Part shown: in pieces, positions 12,906 through 29,266 of the stretch
Position numbering within the stretch: position 1 is the stretch's first letter
How the letters are laid out: every line of letters begins with the position of its first letter
Sequence record: PV159336
DNA from: Escherichia phage W22
DNA length: 64,000 bases
Reading direction: 5' to 3' (one strand)
The notes under the pieces: model-generated
Seen by the model: only the letters and a program-made list of their open reading frames with translations
Told to the model about the DNA's origin: nothing
Database searches by the model: none
Program-made: the position numbers and the translations under genes

Positions 12906-15065
12906 ATGAAACAGGCTATTTTTACTGTAACTCGAAATACGAGAGTAAATGCCAGTTCATTCAGCTATAAGACCGTCGATGGAACGGCGGTCGCTGGTAG
13001 AGATTATGTAGCTAAACAGGGAACAGTAACGTTCCCTTCTGATGCAGATTCTGCTACTGTAGTGGTTGATGTATATGAACGTCCGGCAAACTCTTTAGAT
13101 CTTTATTTTACTCTTGAGATTACTAGCATAAGTCAAAATAACATGATGATCAACGAAGAAATTCGTTGTGTTATTACGACTGATCAATCGAATACAACCC
13201 CGCTAACTTGGCCTGTTGTGAAGTCTAGAATGTTTGATCCTAAGTTTTGGACAATAGATTCTCAAGCAACAGAAAGTTGTTCTATTATCTCTAATGGTGA
13301 TTCTTTCACAGCAAGAATGGTTAATAGGACAGTGGCTGGTCTTGCTGGGATTATTTGGTCAACTTACGATAAATATGATCACAAAGGATTAGGCTACCAA
13401 GAACATTCTGACTTAAGTAAAGAGAAACTTTGGTTTAAAATGGAACTTAGTCAAGGTGTTCCTGGATTAAAAGAAGAAAAATTAATACCATCCTTAACAG
13501 TGACACTGAAGGATGAAACAGTTCATTATGTATCTCTAAACTTTTATGCAGAAGAAGTTTCAGAGGATGGTAAAACAGCAACAATCAAACTAGATTTCTC
13601 AAATTTAAAATCTGGGCCAGAAAATGATATTGTTGTTGACACTACACAGATAGATAATATGTTCTTCTCCTTGATCTCAACGAGGTATCAAGAAATTGAA
13701 GATATTATTCCTGTAGACAATGAGGATCTTTCCTTTAAGTTTACCATACTGGAGCCTGATACTGGTTACAGTATGATGAATATGGGTAATTTAAATGTTC
13801 CAGCACACACCATAAGAATGTGTACATCTTATGATGATATGTATAACCTGACCCCAGAGCGAGTTATTTCTAACACCTACAGATTAGGTTATAGGGATAT
13901 GATTAACCACTATAATGGTATGTCACACTATTATCAGTTTAGTTGGGATGCTGGTTCTAATAAATGGGCTTTGAATAGAACAGAATATTTAAACCCAGCA
14001 ACAGAAGCATGGTTTGATAATTTCCACGCTAATGCAAAAGCTATGGGCTACACAGTAATGAATTCCTTAAGTTTTGAACTTATGAGTACAGTGTGTCCTG
14101 TAGAATGGGTACAACATACTTGGAATGATAATCTTGCTGCTACAGGTTATGAGCCACCAAGTTATGTTTTATCTCCTTCAATTGATGAAGGGATGAATTA
14201 TTTACAAGGTGTAATAAATAAGATAGCTTCTATATCCGCTGCTAATGATCTTCCGGTTATTATTCAGGTTGGTGAACCGTGGTGGTGGTATAACACAGCT
14301 ACCAATCTACCGTGTATTTATGATTATACAACCAAAGTTGCATTTAATAATGAAACTGGATTGTATGCACAAGATGTTGGTACAGTTAAAAATTATAAAA
14401 CTGGTACACCATATGATGAATATTATGCATTCCTATCTAAAACATTAGGACTGCGTGTTGCTAAATTTGCAACAGATACCAGATTAGCATATCCTGGAGC
14501 TAAAGTTACATTGTTACCATTTGTGCCATCCATTTTGGGTAACGGTATGATGGAATTTGTTAACTTCCCTAAAGATTATTATATCCCAGAAAACTTTGAC
14601 TTTTATTGTTCAGAATGTTATGATTGGTTGTTGGAAGGTAAGATGGAAAGATCTTTCGACGCTATCACAATACCTAATGAGCAACTAGGTTTTAGTTATG
14701 ATAAGATACATTATCTTGCAGGGTTTGTTCCAGATGCAACTCTAGCACCATTATATGGCTTTGATCCTGAATCAGACTACAGAACATATTTGTGGAAAAT
14801 GATTATAGGTAATATTGTATTGAATGACCAGAAGTTTGTTGGTTTATATCAATACATATGGGCTTATCCACAAATAATGCATGATTCAATAACTGTTCTT
14901 AATTCAAAATCCCAAGTTTTTTATATGGGTAATGTGCCTTTGAATTGCTATTTGCAAGATATCACTCTTAAACAGGTAAATGTTACGATTGCTACTATAA
15001 GCGGAATTACATTAGCCACTAAATCTGGAGAAGATTTAGTAACAACACAAAAATTTTATATATAG
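12906..15065 (+). CDS. large tail-associated protein with N-terminal Calx-beta-like domain
   Basis: 719 aa; N-terminal VDGTAVAGRDYVAKQGTVTFPSDADSATVVVDV...LYFTLEI fits Calx-beta pattern (G.A..G.DY...G.l.F). Confidence 0.4.
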   Translation: MKQAIFTVTRNTRVNASSFSYKTVDGTAVAGRDYVAKQGTVTFPSDADSATVVVDVYERPANSLDLYFTLEITSISQNNMMINEEIRCVITTDQSNTTPLTWPVVKSRMFDPKFWTIDSQATESCSIISNGDSFTARMVNRTVAGLAGIIWSTYDKYDHKGLGYQEHSDLSKEKLWFKMELSQGVPGLKEEKLIPSLTVTLKDETVHYVSLNFYAEEVSEDGKTATIKLDFSNLKSGPENDIVVDTTQIDNMFFSLISTRYQEIEDIIPVDNEDLSFKFTILEPDTGYSMMNMGNLNVPAHTIRMCTSYDDMYNLTPERVISNTYRLGYRDMINHYNGMSHYYQFSWDAGSNKWALNRTEYLNPATEAWFDNFHANAKAMGYTVMNSLSFELMSTVCPVEWVQHTWNDNLAATGYEPPSYVLSPSIDEGMNYLQGVINKIASISAANDLPVIIQVGEPWWWYNTATNLPCIYDYTTKVAFNNETGLYAQDVGTVKNYKTGTPYDEYYAFLSKTLGLRVAKFATDTRLAYPGAKVTLLPFVPSILGNGMMEFVNFPKDYYIPENFDFYCSECYDWLLEGKMERSFDAITIPNEQLGFSYDKIHYLAGFVPDATLAPLYGFDPESDYRTYLWKMIIGNIVLNDQKFVGLYQYIWAYPQIMHDSITVLNSKSQVFYMGNVPLNCYLQDITLKQVNVTIATISGITLATKSGEDLVTTQKFYI

Positions 15066-15073
15066 GAGTAAAA

Positions 15074-15988
15074 ATGTCAACTACAATTACTAATTTACCC
15101 GAAACATCAAAAGTTAATGGTTCAGATTACCTGGTTTTAGATCAATCTGATAAAACTGTTAAAAGCACAGTTTCCAACTTTCTTACTGACACTGGGGTGG
15201 TTAAAGATTACACTCGTCCTAATATCCGTCAGTTGATCCGCGACCGTGAGGAAGCATTGATCGGAAACAAGGTTCGCTTTGTAACATGGAACACTCAAGG
15301 ATATAACAGTGTGTACAAGTATTATGGAAAAGACTTCGCTAACCAACAACGTGTAACAGACTTGACAGAGTGGTTCCTTCGCATAGGGGCTGATTTTGTG
15401 GGATCACAAGAAGTCTGGTCTGTGCCAGATCAACCGGATAGATTCTTCGCACAATATCCGTATATTTCTGCTTTCCAGTCTATCTCTCTTTGGGAATCAT
15501 CGCTAGGACGCCGCTACGGAAACCTGGCAGTAGCTACACGCGCTTTGAACAACAGTACGTTTAAGATTTATGACTCTCAGCCTATCCCTGGTGACACCGA
15601 TAAGGAACTCCGTTCATATATCCGAACGGAAATGACGGTAGCAGGAACGACCATCGCAATCTACGTCACACACTTGTCTCTTAATCAGACACGCATAAAT
15701 GAAGAGATTGCCGAGTTGGGGCTGGCAATGCAGAACGACACAGCGACGCACATCGTTGTCATGGGGGACTGGAACACTAACACTGATACTGACTTCGCGC
15801 CGTTCACCGATCATGGATTCACTATGGTGAACAGGTTCGGTGAATTTAACACCAACAACGTTGGCAATACCTGGTATCTCGACCGAATTTTCTACAAAGG
15901 TTTCTCGGCTGAAGATGATCGCGGGGTCTTTGATACTCCTGTGTCACTTGGCGACCACAAGGCTCTCTATGTAGATCTGGTAATTTAA
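15074..15988 (+). CDS. tail fiber protein with endonuclease/exonuclease/phosphatase (EEP) domain
   Basis: Tail-fiber N-terminal anchor motif, then EEP-type motifs RFVTWNTQG, VVMGDWNT and C-terminal GDHKALYVDL. Confidence 0.6.
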   Translation: MSTTITNLPETSKVNGSDYLVLDQSDKTVKSTVSNFLTDTGVVKDYTRPNIRQLIRDREEALIGNKVRFVTWNTQGYNSVYKYYGKDFANQQRVTDLTEWFLRIGADFVGSQEVWSVPDQPDRFFAQYPYISAFQSISLWESSLGRRYGNLAVATRALNNSTFKIYDSQPIPGDTDKELRSYIRTEMTVAGTTIAIYVTHLSLNQTRINEEIAELGLAMQNDTATHIVVMGDWNTNTDTDFAPFTDHGFTMVNRFGEFNTNNVGNTWYLDRIFYKGFSAEDDRGVFDTPVSLGDHKALYVDLVI

Positions 15989-16000
15989 GGGGAAAGGAAA

Positions 16001-17308
16001 ATGAATTTACATACAATTGACGCAAACATACTTGACATGCAGGGGCTGCCTTTGGATCTCCGCATCAACAAGATGCTGTCAGACATCAACCGCCTGTATC
16101 AACGAGGGCAGGTTATACTGCTTACTAAGTTTGCTGATTTAGGTCTTGCTGACACCGAAGCTACAATGGCAAATGTGTTCGCTCGTATGCCTAATAACAC
16201 CATCTTTATGACTGAAGTTTACCGTGGTGTTCACACCAATTTCGACATGCCGACACTAATCAACGGTGCGAGATTATCTGGACGGTTGATTGTCTATGGT
16301 TCGTCCGAGTCAAGTAACAAATTGACTGCATACTTTCAGCAAGAAACAGGTTTGTGGACACGCCACCTGAACAAAGGTGCTGCCACAAATTATACCGATA
16401 CGGGATGGCATAAGATTGAAGTTCATGGTTTGCAAGAGGATCTAACCACAAGCTCTGTGACTAATCTTGAAAACAAGCTGTCAAACCTAAAAACGCCAGG
16501 CATCTATTACATAGCTGGTAGCATAATGTCACAATTCACAGACGTGCCCACAACAGGTTCAGGAGCATCACTGTGTGAAGTGACCTATATTCACCATCTG
16601 GCTGACACAATACAGACTTTGCGTACCAACGGGGTTGCTCAGACCGGGTGGCGTAGACAAATTTCTAACAATGGAACTGTTGGGGAATGGAAACAGGAGT
16701 TTGTTAGTGGCTCTCCTATGAATAGTTCGTCTACTATAAGTTTCGCCGGGGGAACTGTTTCTGGGACATTAACTACAAGGACGCTCCAACCTGAAAAAAC
16801 AGCAACCCACAACATCGGTTATGCTTCTGCTGCATACAATCAAGCGTATTTTCAGAATGCGCCCACAGTTGTTTCTGATGTGAATTATAAACTATTCATA
16901 GACGATATTCCTGACGATGTTTTGGATGCGTGGAGCACGGTTAACTACTATCAGTGGAAAATGAAAACTGCTGTTGCGGAGAAAGGTGAGGAAAAAGCGC
17001 GCCTTCATGTAGGTGTCCTTGCACAAGAAATCAAAGAGAAGTTTGAAGCTGCTGGTTTGGATGCAACCAAGTATGGCATTCTTATCTATGATTGTTGGGA
17101 AGCTGTTGAGGCTGTTGAATATAAACCTGCTGTATACGATCCAGATACTAACGAATTAATCTCTGAAGAAGTTCAGGCTGTTGAAGGACGTGAAGCAGGT
17201 GAGATCTGGATGGTGCGAATGGAAGAGTGTCTTGCTTTAGAAGCGGCACTGATGCGCCGGACTACAAAACGACTGGAAGATCGCATGGCTGCTCTGGAAG
17301 GCAAGTAA
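16001..17308 (+). CDS. tail fiber protein with C-terminal intramolecular chaperone (S74-like) domain
   Basis: 435 aa; C-terminal ARLHVGVLAQEIKEKFEAAGLD...YGIL segment resembles autoproteolytic chaperone domain of endosialidase-type fibers. Confidence 0.5.
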   Translation: MNLHTIDANILDMQGLPLDLRINKMLSDINRLYQRGQVILLTKFADLGLADTEATMANVFARMPNNTIFMTEVYRGVHTNFDMPTLINGARLSGRLIVYGSSESSNKLTAYFQQETGLWTRHLNKGAATNYTDTGWHKIEVHGLQEDLTTSSVTNLENKLSNLKTPGIYYIAGSIMSQFTDVPTTGSGASLCEVTYIHHLADTIQTLRTNGVAQTGWRRQISNNGTVGEWKQEFVSGSPMNSSSTISFAGGTVSGTLTTRTLQPEKTATHNIGYASAAYNQAYFQNAPTVVSDVNYKLFIDDIPDDVLDAWSTVNYYQWKMKTAVAEKGEEKARLHVGVLAQEIKEKFEAAGLDATKYGILIYDCWEAVEAVEYKPAVYDPDTNELISEEVQAVEGREAGEIWMVRMEECLALEAALMRRTTKRLEDRMAALEGK

Positions 17309-24413: not shown

Positions 24414-26375
24414 GTGATTTTAACACGTCCAAATAGTGCCATTGCAGACATGGTAGAGTCTCGCTATAGAAAGCGTAGAAGTTTTGCAAGTGGTTTTACC
24501 TTAAGAGATGCTCGTGAAGCATTGCTCTTTGAAGCTGACGGTAACTACTATCAGTGGAAAGGCTCTCTACCTAAAGTTGTACCTGCTAACTCTACTCCTA
24601 CATCTACTGGAGGGATTTCAGATACAGCTTGGAAAAATGTGGGTAATGCAGATGACATTGCTCAAATAGAATCAGAATTAGATGCTATTGAAGCTGAAAT
24701 TGAAGATCTTAGAGAATCCATCCCAGAAGCTGGTAAATCAGCTTACCAGATTGCCGTAGACAATGGTTTCCAAGGTACTGAGACACAGTGGTTGGCTTCT
24801 TTAAAAGGTGATCCAGGTGCTCCATTAAAGCTATTAGGGACACTATCTAATACCAACCAATTACCTACAAGTGGAAACAATGCAGGGGATGCATGGATTG
24901 TAGGCGAGAATATGTATGCTTGGGATGGTACTGCTTGGAGAAAAGTAAACTCACAGGGGCCAGAAGGTAAATCTGCTTATGAAGTATGGCTTGCAGCAGG
25001 AAATGAAGGTACAGAACTAGATTATCTTGCTTCAATTAAAGGTGATAAAGGGGAGCCTGGCCCAGAGGGGCCACAAGGTGTGCCAGGTAATAATGCTAAT
25101 GGTTTTGATTACCAAGGCGCAGCTAATTCCGTTTCAGATCTTCCTTCTGCATCTCATGGAAACACATCTCAAGCATGGAGTGTTGGTACATATCTATACG
25201 TGTCAAACGGTGTAGAATGGATCAATATGGGTGCTATAGTGGGGCCAAAAGGAGATAAAGGCGACAAAGGTGATAAGGGTAACACTGGTGATTCAGCTTA
25301 TCAAGTCTGGTTAAATGCTGGTAACGTTGGTACTATTGATGAATATATTGCCTCTCTGAAAGGAGAAAAAGGTGATAAGGGAGACAAGGGTGATCAAGGT
25401 GCACAGGGTATACAAGGCTTGACGGGGCCAACTGGTGCAGGGTTGACCATTATTGACATTCTTACTAGCACTTCTGAACTACCACAAACTGGAGAAGAGG
25501 GTGATGGTTATCTAATCAATAATGAACTTTGGGTCTGGTTGCAAGGAGCCACAGAGTGGACAAATGTTGGTCGTTTAGCTGGTACTCCAATCACTGCAAA
25601 AGGACACGTTGCGTCTGCAAGTGCACTTCCTCCTACAGCTAATTACGGTGATGCTTATCTGACGGAAGATACAGGTCATCTTTACATTTACACCTATGAT
25701 GAACAAACTCAAACTGCTGAATATGTAGATATGGGTAGTTTGAAAGGTGATAAGGGTGAAAAAGGTGACGCTGGTACTAACGGTACAGACGGTGCAACTT
25801 GGATTGTTAAAACAACAGATCCAATCTCTAGTGATGGTAAACAAGGTGATTATGCCTTTAATATCTCCACTGGCGAGGTGTTCTTAAAAACATCTGCAAC
25901 TGTCTGGACTTCTCAAGGTACACTACCTAGTATCACAGATGCACCTAGTGATGGTAAGACTTATGCTCGTAAAGATGGGGCATGGGAAGAACTCACTAAT
26001 TCTGTAGATGGTCAAGATATAGTTCCAACAAAAGTAACAACTAATTTTATAGAGGTTACAGCATATACCAACAATTCTGTTACAGGCGACTGGACACCTC
26101 CAGGAACACATAACATGAATGTGTTGAATCTTACTGGTAACTCTACTATAAAAGCATGGCCTGGTGTCGAAGATAGCACAAAACCTAAACCATTCTCTGC
26201 AATAGTTTATCTTATCCAAGATGCCACTGGAGGTCATACTGTTACTTTAGATCCATCTTACAAAGTAATTGGTTCTAGTGATATTAATACAGATCCTAAC
26301 GGAGTAACAATACTACAACTAACATATTGTGGTGTTGGCGATTACGTGGATGCTATTGTTGCTAAACGCACATAA
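24414..26375 (+). CDS. tail fiber protein with collagen-like triple-helix repeats
   Basis: 653 aa, GTG start after AAAGGAG; Gly-X-Y runs (GPKGDKGDKGDKGNTGD; KGEKGDKGDKGDQGAQGIQGLTGPTGAG) and three copies of a ~25-aa motif SAYq.w...G.eGT...YLASlKGd. Confidence 0.6.
   Translation: MILTRPNSAIADMVESRYRKRRSFASGFTLRDAREALLFEADGNYYQWKGSLPKVVPANSTPTSTGGISDTAWKNVGNADDIAQIESELDAIEAEIEDLRESIPEAGKSAYQIAVDNGFQGTETQWLASLKGDPGAPLKLLGTLSNTNQLPTSGNNAGDAWIVGENMYAWDGTAWRKVNSQGPEGKSAYEVWLAAGNEGTELDYLASIKGDKGEPGPEGPQGVPGNNANGFDYQGAANSVSDLPSASHGNTSQAWSVGTYLYVSNGVEWINMGAIVGPKGDKGDKGDKGNTGDSAYQVWLNAGNVGTIDEYIASLKGEKGDKGDKGDQGAQGIQGLTGPTGAGLTIIDILTSTSELPQTGEEGDGYLINNELWVWLQGATEWTNVGRLAGTPITAKGHVASASALPPTANYGDAYLTEDTGHLYIYTYDEQTQTAEYVDMGSLKGDKGEKGDAGTNGTDGATWIVKTTDPISSDGKQGDYAFNISTGEVFLKTSATVWTSQGTLPSITDAPSDGKTYARKDGAWEELTNSVDGQDIVPTKVTTNFIEVTAYTNNSVTGDWTPPGTHNMNVLNLTGNSTIKAWPGVEDSTKPKPFSAIVYLIQDATGGHTVTLDPSYKVIGSSDINTDPNGVTILQLTYCGVGDYVDAIVAKRT
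25038..25439 (+). repeat. collagen-like Gly-X-Y triplet repeats (interrupted) inside tail fiber CDS
   Basis: Repeated GGTGATAAAGG/GGAGAAAAAGG codon units encoding G-D-K/G-E-K triplets. Confidence 0.55.
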
Positions 26376-26377
26376 TC

Positions 26378-26404
26378 AAAGCCCCTTCGGGGGCTTATTA
26401 TTTA
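26378..26404 (+). terminator. rho-independent terminator
   Basis: AAAGCCCC-TTCG-GGGGCTT hairpin followed by ATTATTT. Confidence 0.5.
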
Positions 26405-26414
26405 AGGAGATTAA

Positions 26415-29234
26415 ATGTATCCTATTCCTTTATTTATGTCAACAACATCAGCTTCAGTAGTAACAGCTACATCTATAACCACTTCCTCTATTGGTATTGC
26501 AATAGTTGGTAGTAAAAAGCAACTGACATACACAGTTTCACCGGAAGATGGTGCGTTATTTGATATAGCTTTTTCATCTTCAGATAATACCAAAATGGTT
26601 ATAGATAATAACGGTATGATGGAGTTTGTTGCTGAAGGCGGTTTTGATGCAATAATGACAGCTAAAAATAATTTAGGTGCTGTCTTAACTGATCAGTCTG
26701 GTGGCTATGCTTCAGAATTAAGTGTGTACACTGAAAGTCTGTCTGCTATGGATGCAGGAACTACTCAACAATTGGTTGCTACAATCAGTCCAGAAGGTGC
26801 TAAAGACCTTCCAGACATGGTAATTACGTACACCACAACAGATCCAGAAGTAGCTACTGTAAGCCCTACAGGATTAATAACTGCTCTTAAAGATGGCAGT
26901 TGCCGTATAGGTTGCACTGCAACTTATCAAGGAACAGTGGTGGCCTCTGATAGTTCTTATTTAGGTGTTAATGCTGTTCCTGTTATTTCTAATGTAACAG
27001 CCGTGGCAAACAGCTATGGAGACATTCGTGTTGCTTGGGATGTAGCTGATCCGCTAGATGGTGATACTTATACTGTAGAAGTATTAGATTTAAGTAATAA
27101 CAGTGTCCAGTGGACTACAACAACCACGAATACTTACGCCTACTTTGATATCTCTGACTCTATTCCTCTTTATGGGTTTGCTCCAACATACCTTAAAATT
27201 AGCGTTAAGAGCACCAAAGCAGCAGCCGTTATCTTTAATAACTCAATAGCTACAGATGATTCATTCATTAAAGAAGTTATTGTCTTTGCTGGACAAGATA
27301 ACGTAAATGCACACTTTACAGAACTATCTGGTGCAAATAAAGCAGCAATGAGTAGCACAACAGCCCGTAATGCATATGCTACGCAACGTGGTTTAGCAAA
27401 TGCTGAAGTTCTCCCGTTAAATACAGCTTCTGGATCATCAGCAGCAGATAAATATGCAGATGATAAAGCCGGAACAGGTACACCAGACAACTACTGGTAT
27501 GATCTGGATAACACAGCAGATGGGCCATGCTTAACTAACTTTATCACTAAAGTCACACCTTATGCAAGTAAGGTTAAAGCAATTATTTGGGGACAAGGTG
27601 AAAATGATGCTGTATCAGCATCTTCGACTGTTGCAGGAAGATACAGTAACACTACACGTTACCATGATGCTACGATAGCTATCTTTGATAAGATGCGTAC
27701 AATAGTTCCTGCTTCTCAAGCAAAAATTGTTTGGCAGATCCTAGGACGTTCTTATCTGTATGGTGTAGAAGTTAATGGTGTGGATTGGCAGAAATACAGA
27801 AATGTACAAAGAACCATCTCTACAGCACGTGACGATGTTATCATTGGTTCTTGGGTAGATGGTGCTGAACGTTACAGTGGTTATGTTTATGAAGAAGGTA
27901 TTGATGGTCGTATCCATTATATTTCTTCTGTATACCAGACAGCAGCTACAAAACTTGCTAAATCAGCAGCAGACGGTACAGACCTAACATCAACGTCACC
28001 TGTTTGGGTTGATATGGCTGTTCCAACTGGAGCAACAGCTACTTCCCAACCTAATCAAGATACAATCTTAGCATGGGATGCTCAAGGTTATAGTAAACAC
28101 TACTTCCGTAATATTAACGTCTTAACAGCATCTGTATTAACTGAACAAACGCTTAATACGAACAGTTATACGTTTACCTATGCAGATCAAGTAGAACAAT
28201 ATGGTTTTGCAGCAGGTACTACGATATTTGATGTTGCATATTATGACGAAGCAAATGATGTGTTATCTCCTTTAGTACGTTTTAATGTTAGCGTTACAGC
28301 AGGAAAAGTAGAAGATAAACCTGTCGTGATGGACTATGATTTGACGCAAGAAACTCTCCCATCAGATGTTAAGGTTAATGGTGGAAACTCTTTTGCTCGT
28401 GCTTCTGGAGATACACTTGTAGCCACTAACACCTTGGTTGCTCCGTTGGAGTATGTTGGCACTACCCCTGTAGGTAGACGTGTAACAGCTAACACAGCTA
28501 CACAAATTTTTGTCAACAACGCCTTAACAAGCGCAAGCCCGTGGGTAAAGACCAACTTAACTGTTGCAGCTTCATCTGATAAATCTCCGGCTGGAACTAC
28601 TGCTAATGTATTCAAATTAACTCCGACTACAACCTCTGGTAGTCATATCTTAACTGCAACATATACTAACGCGTACAACATATCTGCCGGACGTAACTGG
28701 TCTGCCTCTGTTTTCTTGAAAGCGAACGGGATTACTAAGGCCAAACTAAGATTAAAAGCAGGGACTGAAGTTAATGAAGGTACTTTTGATTTAGCAGCAG
28801 GTACATTCACAGGAAGTGAAGCTAATATTATATCTATGGGCAACGGTTGGTATCGTGCTATTCTGCATAAAACAGGGATAGCCAAACAGTCCTCCATAAG
28901 TTTTGAAATAATTGCCTTGGATGCTACTGGTGCGGAGATTTTCGCTGGGGATGGTACTAGTAACCTTGCAGTTTGGTTGCCACAGCTTGAAGGTGCTTCT
29001 ACAGGAGAAACATCAAAAGCTGGATCGCCTTATGTCTGCACATATCCTGGAAATTTAGGAGGAGTATCCTTCACTATACCAAGGAACGGACATACTGGTG
29101 TGGATGTTTACTATTCCAACGGAGACGTTGTTCGTGACGTATTCTCTGGTACGGCATCTACTTGGACAATAAACTACTCCAGCTTGTACGATTGGGGATC
29201 AGTCTTTATTACAGGTTTGAAATATTACGACTAA
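26415..29234 (+). CDS. tail fiber protein with SGNH/GDSL-type esterase-like domain
   Basis: 939 aa; blocks FAGQDNVNAHF (GxSN-like block I), IIWGQGENDA (GxND block III), DGRIHY (DxxH block V); flanked by beta-rich regions. Confidence 0.5.
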   Translation: MYPIPLFMSTTSASVVTATSITTSSIGIAIVGSKKQLTYTVSPEDGALFDIAFSSSDNTKMVIDNNGMMEFVAEGGFDAIMTAKNNLGAVLTDQSGGYASELSVYTESLSAMDAGTTQQLVATISPEGAKDLPDMVITYTTTDPEVATVSPTGLITALKDGSCRIGCTATYQGTVVASDSSYLGVNAVPVISNVTAVANSYGDIRVAWDVADPLDGDTYTVEVLDLSNNSVQWTTTTTNTYAYFDISDSIPLYGFAPTYLKISVKSTKAAAVIFNNSIATDDSFIKEVIVFAGQDNVNAHFTELSGANKAAMSSTTARNAYATQRGLANAEVLPLNTASGSSAADKYADDKAGTGTPDNYWYDLDNTADGPCLTNFITKVTPYASKVKAIIWGQGENDAVSASSTVAGRYSNTTRYHDATIAIFDKMRTIVPASQAKIVWQILGRSYLYGVEVNGVDWQKYRNVQRTISTARDDVIIGSWVDGAERYSGYVYEEGIDGRIHYISSVYQTAATKLAKSAADGTDLTSTSPVWVDMAVPTGATATSQPNQDTILAWDAQGYSKHYFRNINVLTASVLTEQTLNTNSYTFTYADQVEQYGFAAGTTIFDVAYYDEANDVLSPLVRFNVSVTAGKVEDKPVVMDYDLTQETLPSDVKVNGGNSFARASGDTLVATNTLVAPLEYVGTTPVGRRVTANTATQIFVNNALTSASPWVKTNLTVAASSDKSPAGTTANVFKLTPTTTSGSHILTATYTNAYNISAGRNWSASVFLKANGITKAKLRLKAGTEVNEGTFDLAAGTFTGSEANIISMGNGWYRAILHKTGIAKQSSISFEIIALDATGAEIFAGDGTSNLAVWLPQLEGASTGETSKAGSPYVCTYPGNLGGVSFTIPRNGHTGVDVYYSNGDVVRDVFSGTASTWTINYSSLYDWGSVFITGLKYYD

Positions 29235-29237
29235 TAA

Positions 29238-29266
29238 AAAAGGAGCCATTAGGCTCCTTTTCTTTT
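29238..29266. terminator. bidirectional terminator between convergent late (+) and early (-) modules
   Basis: AAAAAGGAGCC-ATTA-GGCTCCTTTTCTTTT hairpin with A-run upstream and T-run downstream. Confidence 0.6.

Follow-up and report, generated by a model that had tools for sequence, protein, structure and literature searches.

The 939-residue protein encoded by the last gene of the tail-fibre module of Escherichia phage W22 contains an SGNH-fold domain of the SASA (sialate-O-acetylesterase) branch in which the nucleophilic serine is replaced by an aspartate (Asp295). The gene lies in a 64,000-nucleotide stretch of DNA (sequence record PV159336; hereafter the window), and its features are listed in Table 1. 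The replacement has a single origin, and the domain is kept under purifying selection within a modular protein. We interpret this protein as an accessory modular tail adhesin in which the pocket of a former SASA esterase would act as a non-catalytic carbohydrate-binding site, a reading to which we assign a probability of roughly 0.55.

The open reading frame (ORF), which had been predicted from the nucleotide sequence alone, is complete, with an ATG start, a ribosome-binding site and a hairpin that is a likely terminator. At the DNA level it shares 97–99% identity with genes of Justusliebigvirus (e.g. EC.P2, PHB05, alia and PaulScherrer), the phi92-like myoviruses of the Stephanstirmvirinae. 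The same original prediction described the product as a β-rich tail fibre with an SGNH/GDSL-type esterase-like domain and proposed it as a candidate surface-glycan deacetylase. In an AlphaFold2 (AF2) model the term β-rich is appropriate for the flanking domains and inappropriate for the esterase-like domain itself, which is α/β. The full-length model is poor, with a predicted local distance difference test score (pLDDT) of 57 overall and 25–40 in the C-terminal domain.

Searches of Pfam, PDB and NCBIfam with the whole protein returned, for residues 1–628, only Big_2 and a sub-threshold match to the Pfam family SASA (PF03629; 14.2 bits for the full-length protein and 17.0 bits for the domain, gathering threshold 24.8), which comes from the block III stretch. 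A domain profile built from six homologues was searched against 1.84 billion cluster representatives and yielded a family of 229 representatives at E ≤ 1e-3, 27 of them at E < 1e-30. Homologue searches with the domain alone and with a 20-sequence profile added almost no further members. PF03629 is matched by 14 of 20 sampled family domains (best E 3.7e-15), so that the SASA homology of the present domain is transitive, through these members. The profile search that had been suggested as a check thus established the link to SASA by way of distant homologues and not by a direct Pfam score. The family profile gives weak but consistent matches to the SASA/SGNH structures 1zmb, 2apj, 9h4u, 3pt5 and 4k3u. 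The closest solved relative is N4 gp65 (9lc0_I), with profile E-values of 8.5e-36 and 2.2e-64, a Foldseek E-value of 2e-12 and a TM-score of 0.79. Residues 279–534 show the three-layer α/β/α arrangement of the SGNH fold, and their assignment to the SASA/sialate-O-acetylesterase branch of this fold is supported.

The three motifs from which an SGNH-type domain had originally been deduced are present in the predicted order (FAGQDNVNAHF, residues 291–301; IIWGQGENDA, residues 390–399; DGRIHY, residues 497–502). They fall on blocks I, III and V of the 229-representative family and are not a chance resemblance. Membership in the GDSL type (G-D-S) was ruled out, block I being of the SASA type G-Q-S-N.

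Block I of the family has the consensus a-G-Q-S-N-a-x-x-H and aligns with the GQSNM motif of 1zmb and 2apj. The nucleophile column holds Ser in 90 of the 106 aligned domains and Asp in four. In the W22 protein this position is Asp295, which bears out the initial doubt about the atypical GQDN context. In the AF2 model Asp295 opens helix α1 directly past strand β1, the canonical location of the nucleophile. All close homologues carry GQDN (32 of 32) and the 43%-identical Av-05 group carries GGDN; the next relatives (P0036, P0037, P0043 and P0044) have GQSN or GQSH.

Judged by alignment, blocks II and III (residues 339–346 and WGQGENDA, residues 392–399), which would form the oxyanion-hole region, match the family consensus. 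The Justusliebigvirus lineage and the Ser-bearing relative P0037 have the same sequence in blocks II, III and V. His501 occupies a column that is invariant in one of the alignments (A4). The block V motif DGRIHY reads D-x-x-x-H and not D-x-x-H: Gly498 stands in the column of the canonical Asp, and the family does not conserve Asp497 (at −4). The −3 Asp is missing from the whole phage-tail subclade, Ser-bearing members included, which may ancestrally have had a Ser-His dyad. Of the Ser/Asp/His triad, His501 alone remains. The lack of such a triad had been named at the outset as evidence against the prediction, and at the sequence level this is what we find; with Asp295 in place of Ser and Gly498 in place of the canonical triad Asp, a surface-glycan deacetylase in the form first proposed is not supported.

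In a neighbour-joining tree the Asp-bearing domains (Justusliebigvirus and the Av-05 group) form one clade nested in Ser-bearing sequences, which indicates one Ser-to-Asp event of at least two nucleotide changes that was kept in both descendant lineages. The Av-05 branch has decayed further, with loss of the block II Gly, a change from Asn to Gln in block III and a change from His to Gln in P0032 and P0033, as would be expected if catalysis is no longer selected. The SGNH-like domain of W22 is NEVERTHELESS maintained: the ratio of non-synonymous to synonymous substitution rates (dN/dS) is 0.016–0.05 against Nernie, EmilieFrey and VEcB, the lowest of all parts of the protein, with 15–17 synonymous and 1–3 non-synonymous codon differences. 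The tighter constraint on this domain than on its flanks is a trend only (Fisher p 0.06–0.12).

Degenerate forms of block I are also found in the wider family, where many tail-protein copies carry GINS, GPNL, GDAN, GHEN, GGLN, GQAN or GQMN, often with the His kept. This points to repeated loss of the nucleophile in phage structural proteins.

Based on these observations and the model we propose the following picture of the protein. The Ig-like Big_2 domains and the β-sandwiches would be spacers or weak adhesins that carry two globular glycan-recognition modules. In the first module (residues 279–534) the standard acyl-enzyme cycle of an esterase would be impossible without the Ser nucleophile. 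The pocket would nevertheless be retained, with Gly and Ser of block II, QGEND of block III, His501 and the invariant NYWYD motif, whose aromatic residues are a candidate sugar-contact surface. Since the pocket elements are kept and the nucleophile is gone, we infer a lectin-like binding of host surface polysaccharide without cleavage. The ligand is possibly an acetylated or amino-sugar polysaccharide. The receptor-binding sheath of N4, in which gp65 carries degenerate homologous domains, would be a parallel case. The best functional analogy is given by the CE2 structures 2wao (CtCE2) and 2w9x (CjCE2), which are among the structural neighbours of the domain and in which, by their titles, the SGNH active-site cleft doubles as a non-catalytic carbohydrate-binding site. 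The CE2 enzymes, however, keep a Ser-His dyad, are cellular plant-cell-wall enzymes and have no close sequence relationship to the W22 domain. The second module (residues ~640–939), a tip resembling gene-transfer-agent (GTA) spike fibres, is swapped between phages and would provide a second, variable specificity.

Several observations weigh against this interpretation. The lineage of the W22 protein is about 50% diverged from its Ser-bearing relatives and keeps all catalytic elements but the Ser; these intact elements could mean that some chemistry continues with Asp and His. In a search of 50,697 phage records the SGNH-like domain was absent from rV5-like and Phapecoctavirus phages. In phi92 (NC_023693, 6321–7983; window 26982–27420) the orthologue is split by a 226-bp deletion and a 2-bp insertion into gp152 (residues 1–198) and gp153 (residues 335–628), and the GQDN-coding stretch lies between both coding sequences (CDSs). 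The deletion takes out β-sandwich 1, which has weak internal similarity to residues 542–600. Given the disrupted phi92 copy and the absence of the domain from rV5-like and Phapecoctavirus phages, any role of the protein would be accessory.

If chemistry does continue, the protein would still be an enzyme, either a carbohydrate esterase/deacetylase or another hydrolase, that processes a host-glycan receptor with non-canonical machinery. Asp295 could be the nucleophile itself, or the Asp295/His501 pair could activate a water molecule, in both cases with the usual oxyanion hole from blocks II and III. An Asp nucleophile is used by the Asp-His α/β-hydrolases (haloalkane dehalogenases, epoxide hydrolases). 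To our knowledge no SGNH-fold enzyme of this kind has been described, and a literature search returned nothing specific on either the W22 protein or an SGNH domain with Asp in place of Ser. The full retention of blocks II, III and V in Justusliebigvirus, in the same form as in P0037, would suit an enzyme. Against it, the block II Gly and the block III Asn, and at times also the His, have disappeared from the Av-05 branch, which shares the Asp, and there is no canonical triad Asp. The very strong purifying selection on the domain and the persistence of Asp in both lineages descending from the single substitution can likewise be cited for catalysis; as domain identity is only about 48%, the persistence is weak evidence either way. 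Some GenBank records label the gene 'tail carbohydrate esterase', but these annotations are automatic and based on the fold. If an Asp attacked an acetyl ester, the resulting mixed anhydride would be unfavourable on chemical grounds. We consider a remaining enzymatic function unlikely.

N4 gp65 (PDB entries 9lc0, 9yf4, 9yf5 and 9yft), a receptor-binding protein, is also informative with respect to the organization of the tail-fibre module. Like the W22 protein, it contains SGNH-like domains with degenerate motifs. In gp65-type sheath proteins a degenerate block I is the rule: it is GINQ in domain 2 of N4 gp65, and GDHT and GINS in the sheath protein of phiAxp-2, so that the Ser is missing from one copy of the homologous domain or from both. 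Related 'tail sheath and receptor binding proteins' also occur in Achromobacter, Delftia and Pseudomonas phages. N4 gp65 is the sheath subunit of a podovirus and combines two tandem SGNH-like copies with NCTSP_N and a TIM barrel in one chain, whereas W22 is a myovirus in which this architecture is divided between two genes. NCTSP_N (PF23844) and TIM-barrel_NCTSP (PF23845) are absent from the ORF at 26415..29234 and present in 12906..15065, whose product is a homologue of the N-terminal half of gp65. The W22 protein in turn pairs its SGNH-like domain with Big_2 and a GTA-spike-fibre domain.

Both modules are joined in the metagenomic fusion P0037. Its residues 128–704 match the 12906..15065 product (34% identity over 583 residues, E 6e-105), and its residues ~730–1171 match residues ~194–628 of the W22 protein and carry the Ser. 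Fusions of this type give a Rosetta-stone hint that the TIM-barrel and SGNH-like modules may act together. They would also fit a physical partnership with selection on protein-protein contacts, and the homologous domains of N4 gp65 build a non-contractile sheath (PMC13434306). The SGNH-like domain might then be a scaffold, spacer or docking surface (e.g. for the 12906..15065 protein) without a ligand of its own, and receptor recognition would be confined to the C-terminal domain and the Ig domains. The conserved residues, however, are those of the former active-site blocks and NYWYD and do not form a generic surface, and in the short orthologues of VEcB, ECGD1 and Av-05 the SGNH-like domain is the sole globular non-Ig module. 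A role confined to scaffolding therefore appears quite improbable to us.

The genus of W22 and N4 have a receptor requirement in common, since N4 and the Justusliebigvirus phages Bas60–62 both need the NGR glycan (PMC11990801). NGR is a proposed polymer based on N-acetylmannosamine (ManNAc), the structure of which is unknown (PMC8669472). By way of NGR, N4 and the Justusliebigvirus phages bypass O-antigen. A 'deacetylase-domain lateral tail fibre', linked to NGR/'ECA', was described in the BASEL study as present also in N4 (PMC8594841). We considered and rejected the ORF at 26415..29234 as this fibre, because rV5-like phages share the receptor dependence yet lack the SGNH-like domain; the description fits the TIM-barrel protein. 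The BASEL fibre linked to NGR/wecB dependence is thus probably the 12906..15065 product. Recognition of NGR by the protein studied here is possible but not indicated. That Asp295 and His501 form a functional site, which would make the domain either the first Asp-for-Ser SGNH hydrolase or a dedicated lectin for NGR (or for an O-acetylated or amino-sugar variant), is in our opinion doubtful.

The Big_2 region scores 51.9 bits (gathering threshold 22.8), is all-β in the AF2 model and is 96% identical to phi92 gp152. The C-terminal domain, at the other end of the chain, matches the NCBIfam entry NF048003 'phage head spike fiber domain' with 70.1 bits (curated cut-off 36) over residues 694–863. PDB sequences with similarity to it include the RcGTA head spike fibre Rcc01080 (6tb9, E 4.3e-14) and the unmodelled C-terminal appendage of gp17, the Dit protein of Shigella phage Sf11 (9occ, E 1.4e-19). 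On account of the low pLDDT in this region the domain was assigned by sequence only. RcGTA head spikes bind capsule. The function of the gp17 appendage is called unknown by the authors of the Sf11 structure (PMC12724387). The carriers of the domain differ, being a head spike in RcGTA, the Dit of a siphophage in Sf11 and a modular tail-associated protein here. In the first two it is a distal, exchangeable module of a virion surface protein, and we infer a similar placement in the W22 virion. The domain is absent from the orthologues of VEcB, ECGD1, phi92 and Av-05 (628–647 residues), is only 62% identical in Nernie and EmilieFrey (synonymous divergence dS ~1.6) and recurs in Phapecoctavirus tail proteins, Kagunavirus proteins and an RcapMu fibre. 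As judged by this pattern, it is a mobile module that is exchangeable between phages. Searches of the ORF against Pfam, PHROG and NCBIfam revealed no trimerisation, coiled-coil, β-helix, collagen-repeat, chaperone or virion-attachment signature; adjoining genes carry such elements. The architecture is one of Ig-like domains, β-sandwiches and globular domains, and the designation as a tail fibre is putative.

The SGNH-like domain was found in 77 of the 50,697 phage records, namely in Justusliebigvirus, three Av-05-like phages and gp65-like sheath proteins. The gene is intact in at least 25 sequenced relatives, and dN/dS over residues 1–534 is 0.02–0.1. Together with the strong ribosome-binding site and the terminator, these data argue against a dispensable relic without current function that is heading for loss, as might be suspected from the broken gp152/gp153 orthologue of phi92 and from ALITA (PP359570, 9001–11820), where two CDSs are annotated in place of one ('tail carbohydrate esterase', 719 residues, and 'tail protein', 172 residues). 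The ALITA split suggests either that a frameshift or stop interrupts the C-terminal domain or that the sequence is in error. A recent cryo-electron microscopy paper on phi92 makes no mention of gp152 or gp153. We regard decay towards loss as highly improbable for the W22 gene.

The plus-strand module upstream of the gene encodes baseplate J, a colanidase-type tailspike and fibres of two kinds, one of the Mu type with its chaperone and one with collagen repeats; downstream follows a convergent replication module including a methylase and DNA polymerase A. The GC-rich hairpin 3' of the gene is likely a bidirectional terminator shared with the convergent downstream gene, and the records of phages Paula and PATM carry a terminator annotation for it. 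A second GC-rich hairpin with only a weak T tract lies 5' of the gene (26379..26396). Hairpins on both sides give the gene a cassette-like appearance, which fits modular exchange at this locus. Both PHROG matches of the ORF (32204 and 11922) are described as 'tail protein'. Labels within Justusliebigvirus vary between 'tail protein', 'lateral tail fiber protein', 'non-contractile tail sheath' and 'tail carbohydrate esterase', and the copy of the BASEL phage EmilieFrey is annotated with 'intimin and glycosidase domains'.

Some further observations concern neighbouring genes and database records. The gene at 24414..26375 (+) encodes a 653-residue equivalent of phi92 gp151 with a Tail_spike_N anchor (TSP1/Gp66-type), collagen repeats and a fibritin-C-like end. 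The 435-residue product of 16001..17308 (+) contains a Peptidase_S74 intramolecular chaperone domain and is far shorter than an endosialidase, so that the phage probably lacks a polysialic-acid depolymerase of the phi92 gp143 type. At 15074..15988 (+), inside the tail-fibre module, a 304-residue member of the endonuclease/exonuclease/phosphatase family (PF03372, E 4e-12) is encoded. A virion-associated phosphodiesterase-like enzyme of this kind would be unusual and might target phosphodiester-linked surface polymers. Three GenBank records with Campylobacter jejuni as the stated host (MG065639, MG065656 and MG065645, 'Campylobacter phage A150/C3/A145', ~146 kb) carry the gene with 95–100% identity to E. 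coli Justusliebigvirus phages, which suggests that they are mislabelled or contaminant.

Table 1. Features of the modular tail-associated protein, its gene and the separate TIM-barrel gene (positions in the window)
Feature	Residues	Position	Strand	Remarks
Complete ORF, modular tail-associated protein	939 plus stop	26415..29234	+	Equivalent of the phi92 gp152/gp153 locus
Shine-Dalgarno AAGGAG		26404..26409	+	5 nt before ATG; direct sequence reading
Two Big_2 Ig-like domains	~16–189	26460..26981	+	Pfam PF02368, E 7.2e-14, two stretches
β-sandwich 1	190–278	26982..27248	+	Strands only in AF2 model, pLDDT ~80; no Pfam match
SGNH-fold, SASA-type esterase-like domain	279–534	27249..28016	+	α/β
Block I, FAGQ-D295-NVNAHF		27285..27317	+	Asp295 codon GAT 27297-27299, at the position of the nucleophile Ser
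Block II, SGSSAADK	339–346	27429..27452	+	Gly340 and Ser342 conserved; family consensus G-G/S-S-A-A-x-K
NYWYD motif	359–363	27489..27503	+	Invariant in Ser- and Asp-bearing homologues
Block III, IIWGQGENDA		27582..27611	+	Trp392, Gly395, Glu396, Asp398; family consensus W-x-Q-G-E-x-D-A
Block V, DGRI-H501-Y		27903..27920	+	His501 codon CAT 27915-27917, conserved; −3 position Gly498
β-sandwich 2	535–628	28017..28298	+	Short orthologues (VEcB, ECGD1, phi92, Av-05; 628–647 residues) stop here
Exchangeable C-terminal domain	~640–939	28332..29231	+	RcGTA head-spike-fibre family; core residues 694–863 = 28494-29003
GC-rich palindromic hairpin		29238..29261	.	A-run/T-run flanks; between convergent genes
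Separate gene, Calx-beta, NCTSP_N and TIM-barrel_NCTSP	719	12906..15065	+	Pfam E 9.7e-82

The SASA family includes E. coli NanS (3pt5), 1zmb, Arabidopsis At4g34215 (2apj), XAC1771 (7kmm) and mammalian SIAE. The W22 domain differs from these enzymes in Asp295 for Ser, Gly498 for the block V Asp, the sub-threshold PF03629 score and its location between the β-sandwiches of a phage structural protein. A study by Prokhorov from 2017 reportedly showed deacetylase activity of a phage SGNH serine esterase. With the phage SGNH esterase tailspikes and fibres (G7C gp63.1, Possum, Moo19/B2 and the petal domain of epsilon15) the protein shares an SGNH fold on an adsorption protein, but these are distant structural matches only (TM-score ~0.4–0.6, 11–16% identity). 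Their deacetylase activity is described as experimentally shown (PMC11654681, PMC9569702); unlike them, the W22 protein lacks the Ser. That phage adsorption proteins can carry SGNH esterase domains is well known, and some records call the present gene an esterase. A monophyletic clade, maintained by selection, in which Asp replaces the catalytic Ser appears to be undescribed, as do the homology to the N4 gp65 modules, the division of the gp65 architecture over two genes and the membership of the C-terminal module in the GTA head-spike-fibre family.

Automatic labels such as 'tail carbohydrate esterase' or 'glycosidase-domain tail fibre' may cause this protein to be miscounted as an enzyme in host-range engineering and in the mining of depolymerases and deacetylases. 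The modular map could be of use in the design of receptor-binding proteins, with a fixed core of Ig and SGNH-like domains and a swappable GTA-spike-fibre-like tip that is absent in some relatives. The homology also connects the receptor-binding gp65 sheath of N4 with the multi-fibre apparatus found in phi92-like phages; both depend on the poorly understood NGR glycan. If the lectin reading is true, the protein would show, in a phage, how an enzyme can become a binding module. If the ligand were NGR, the module would be a ready-made NGR probe, and this would explain the pairing of TIM barrel and SGNH-like domains in gp65-type proteins.

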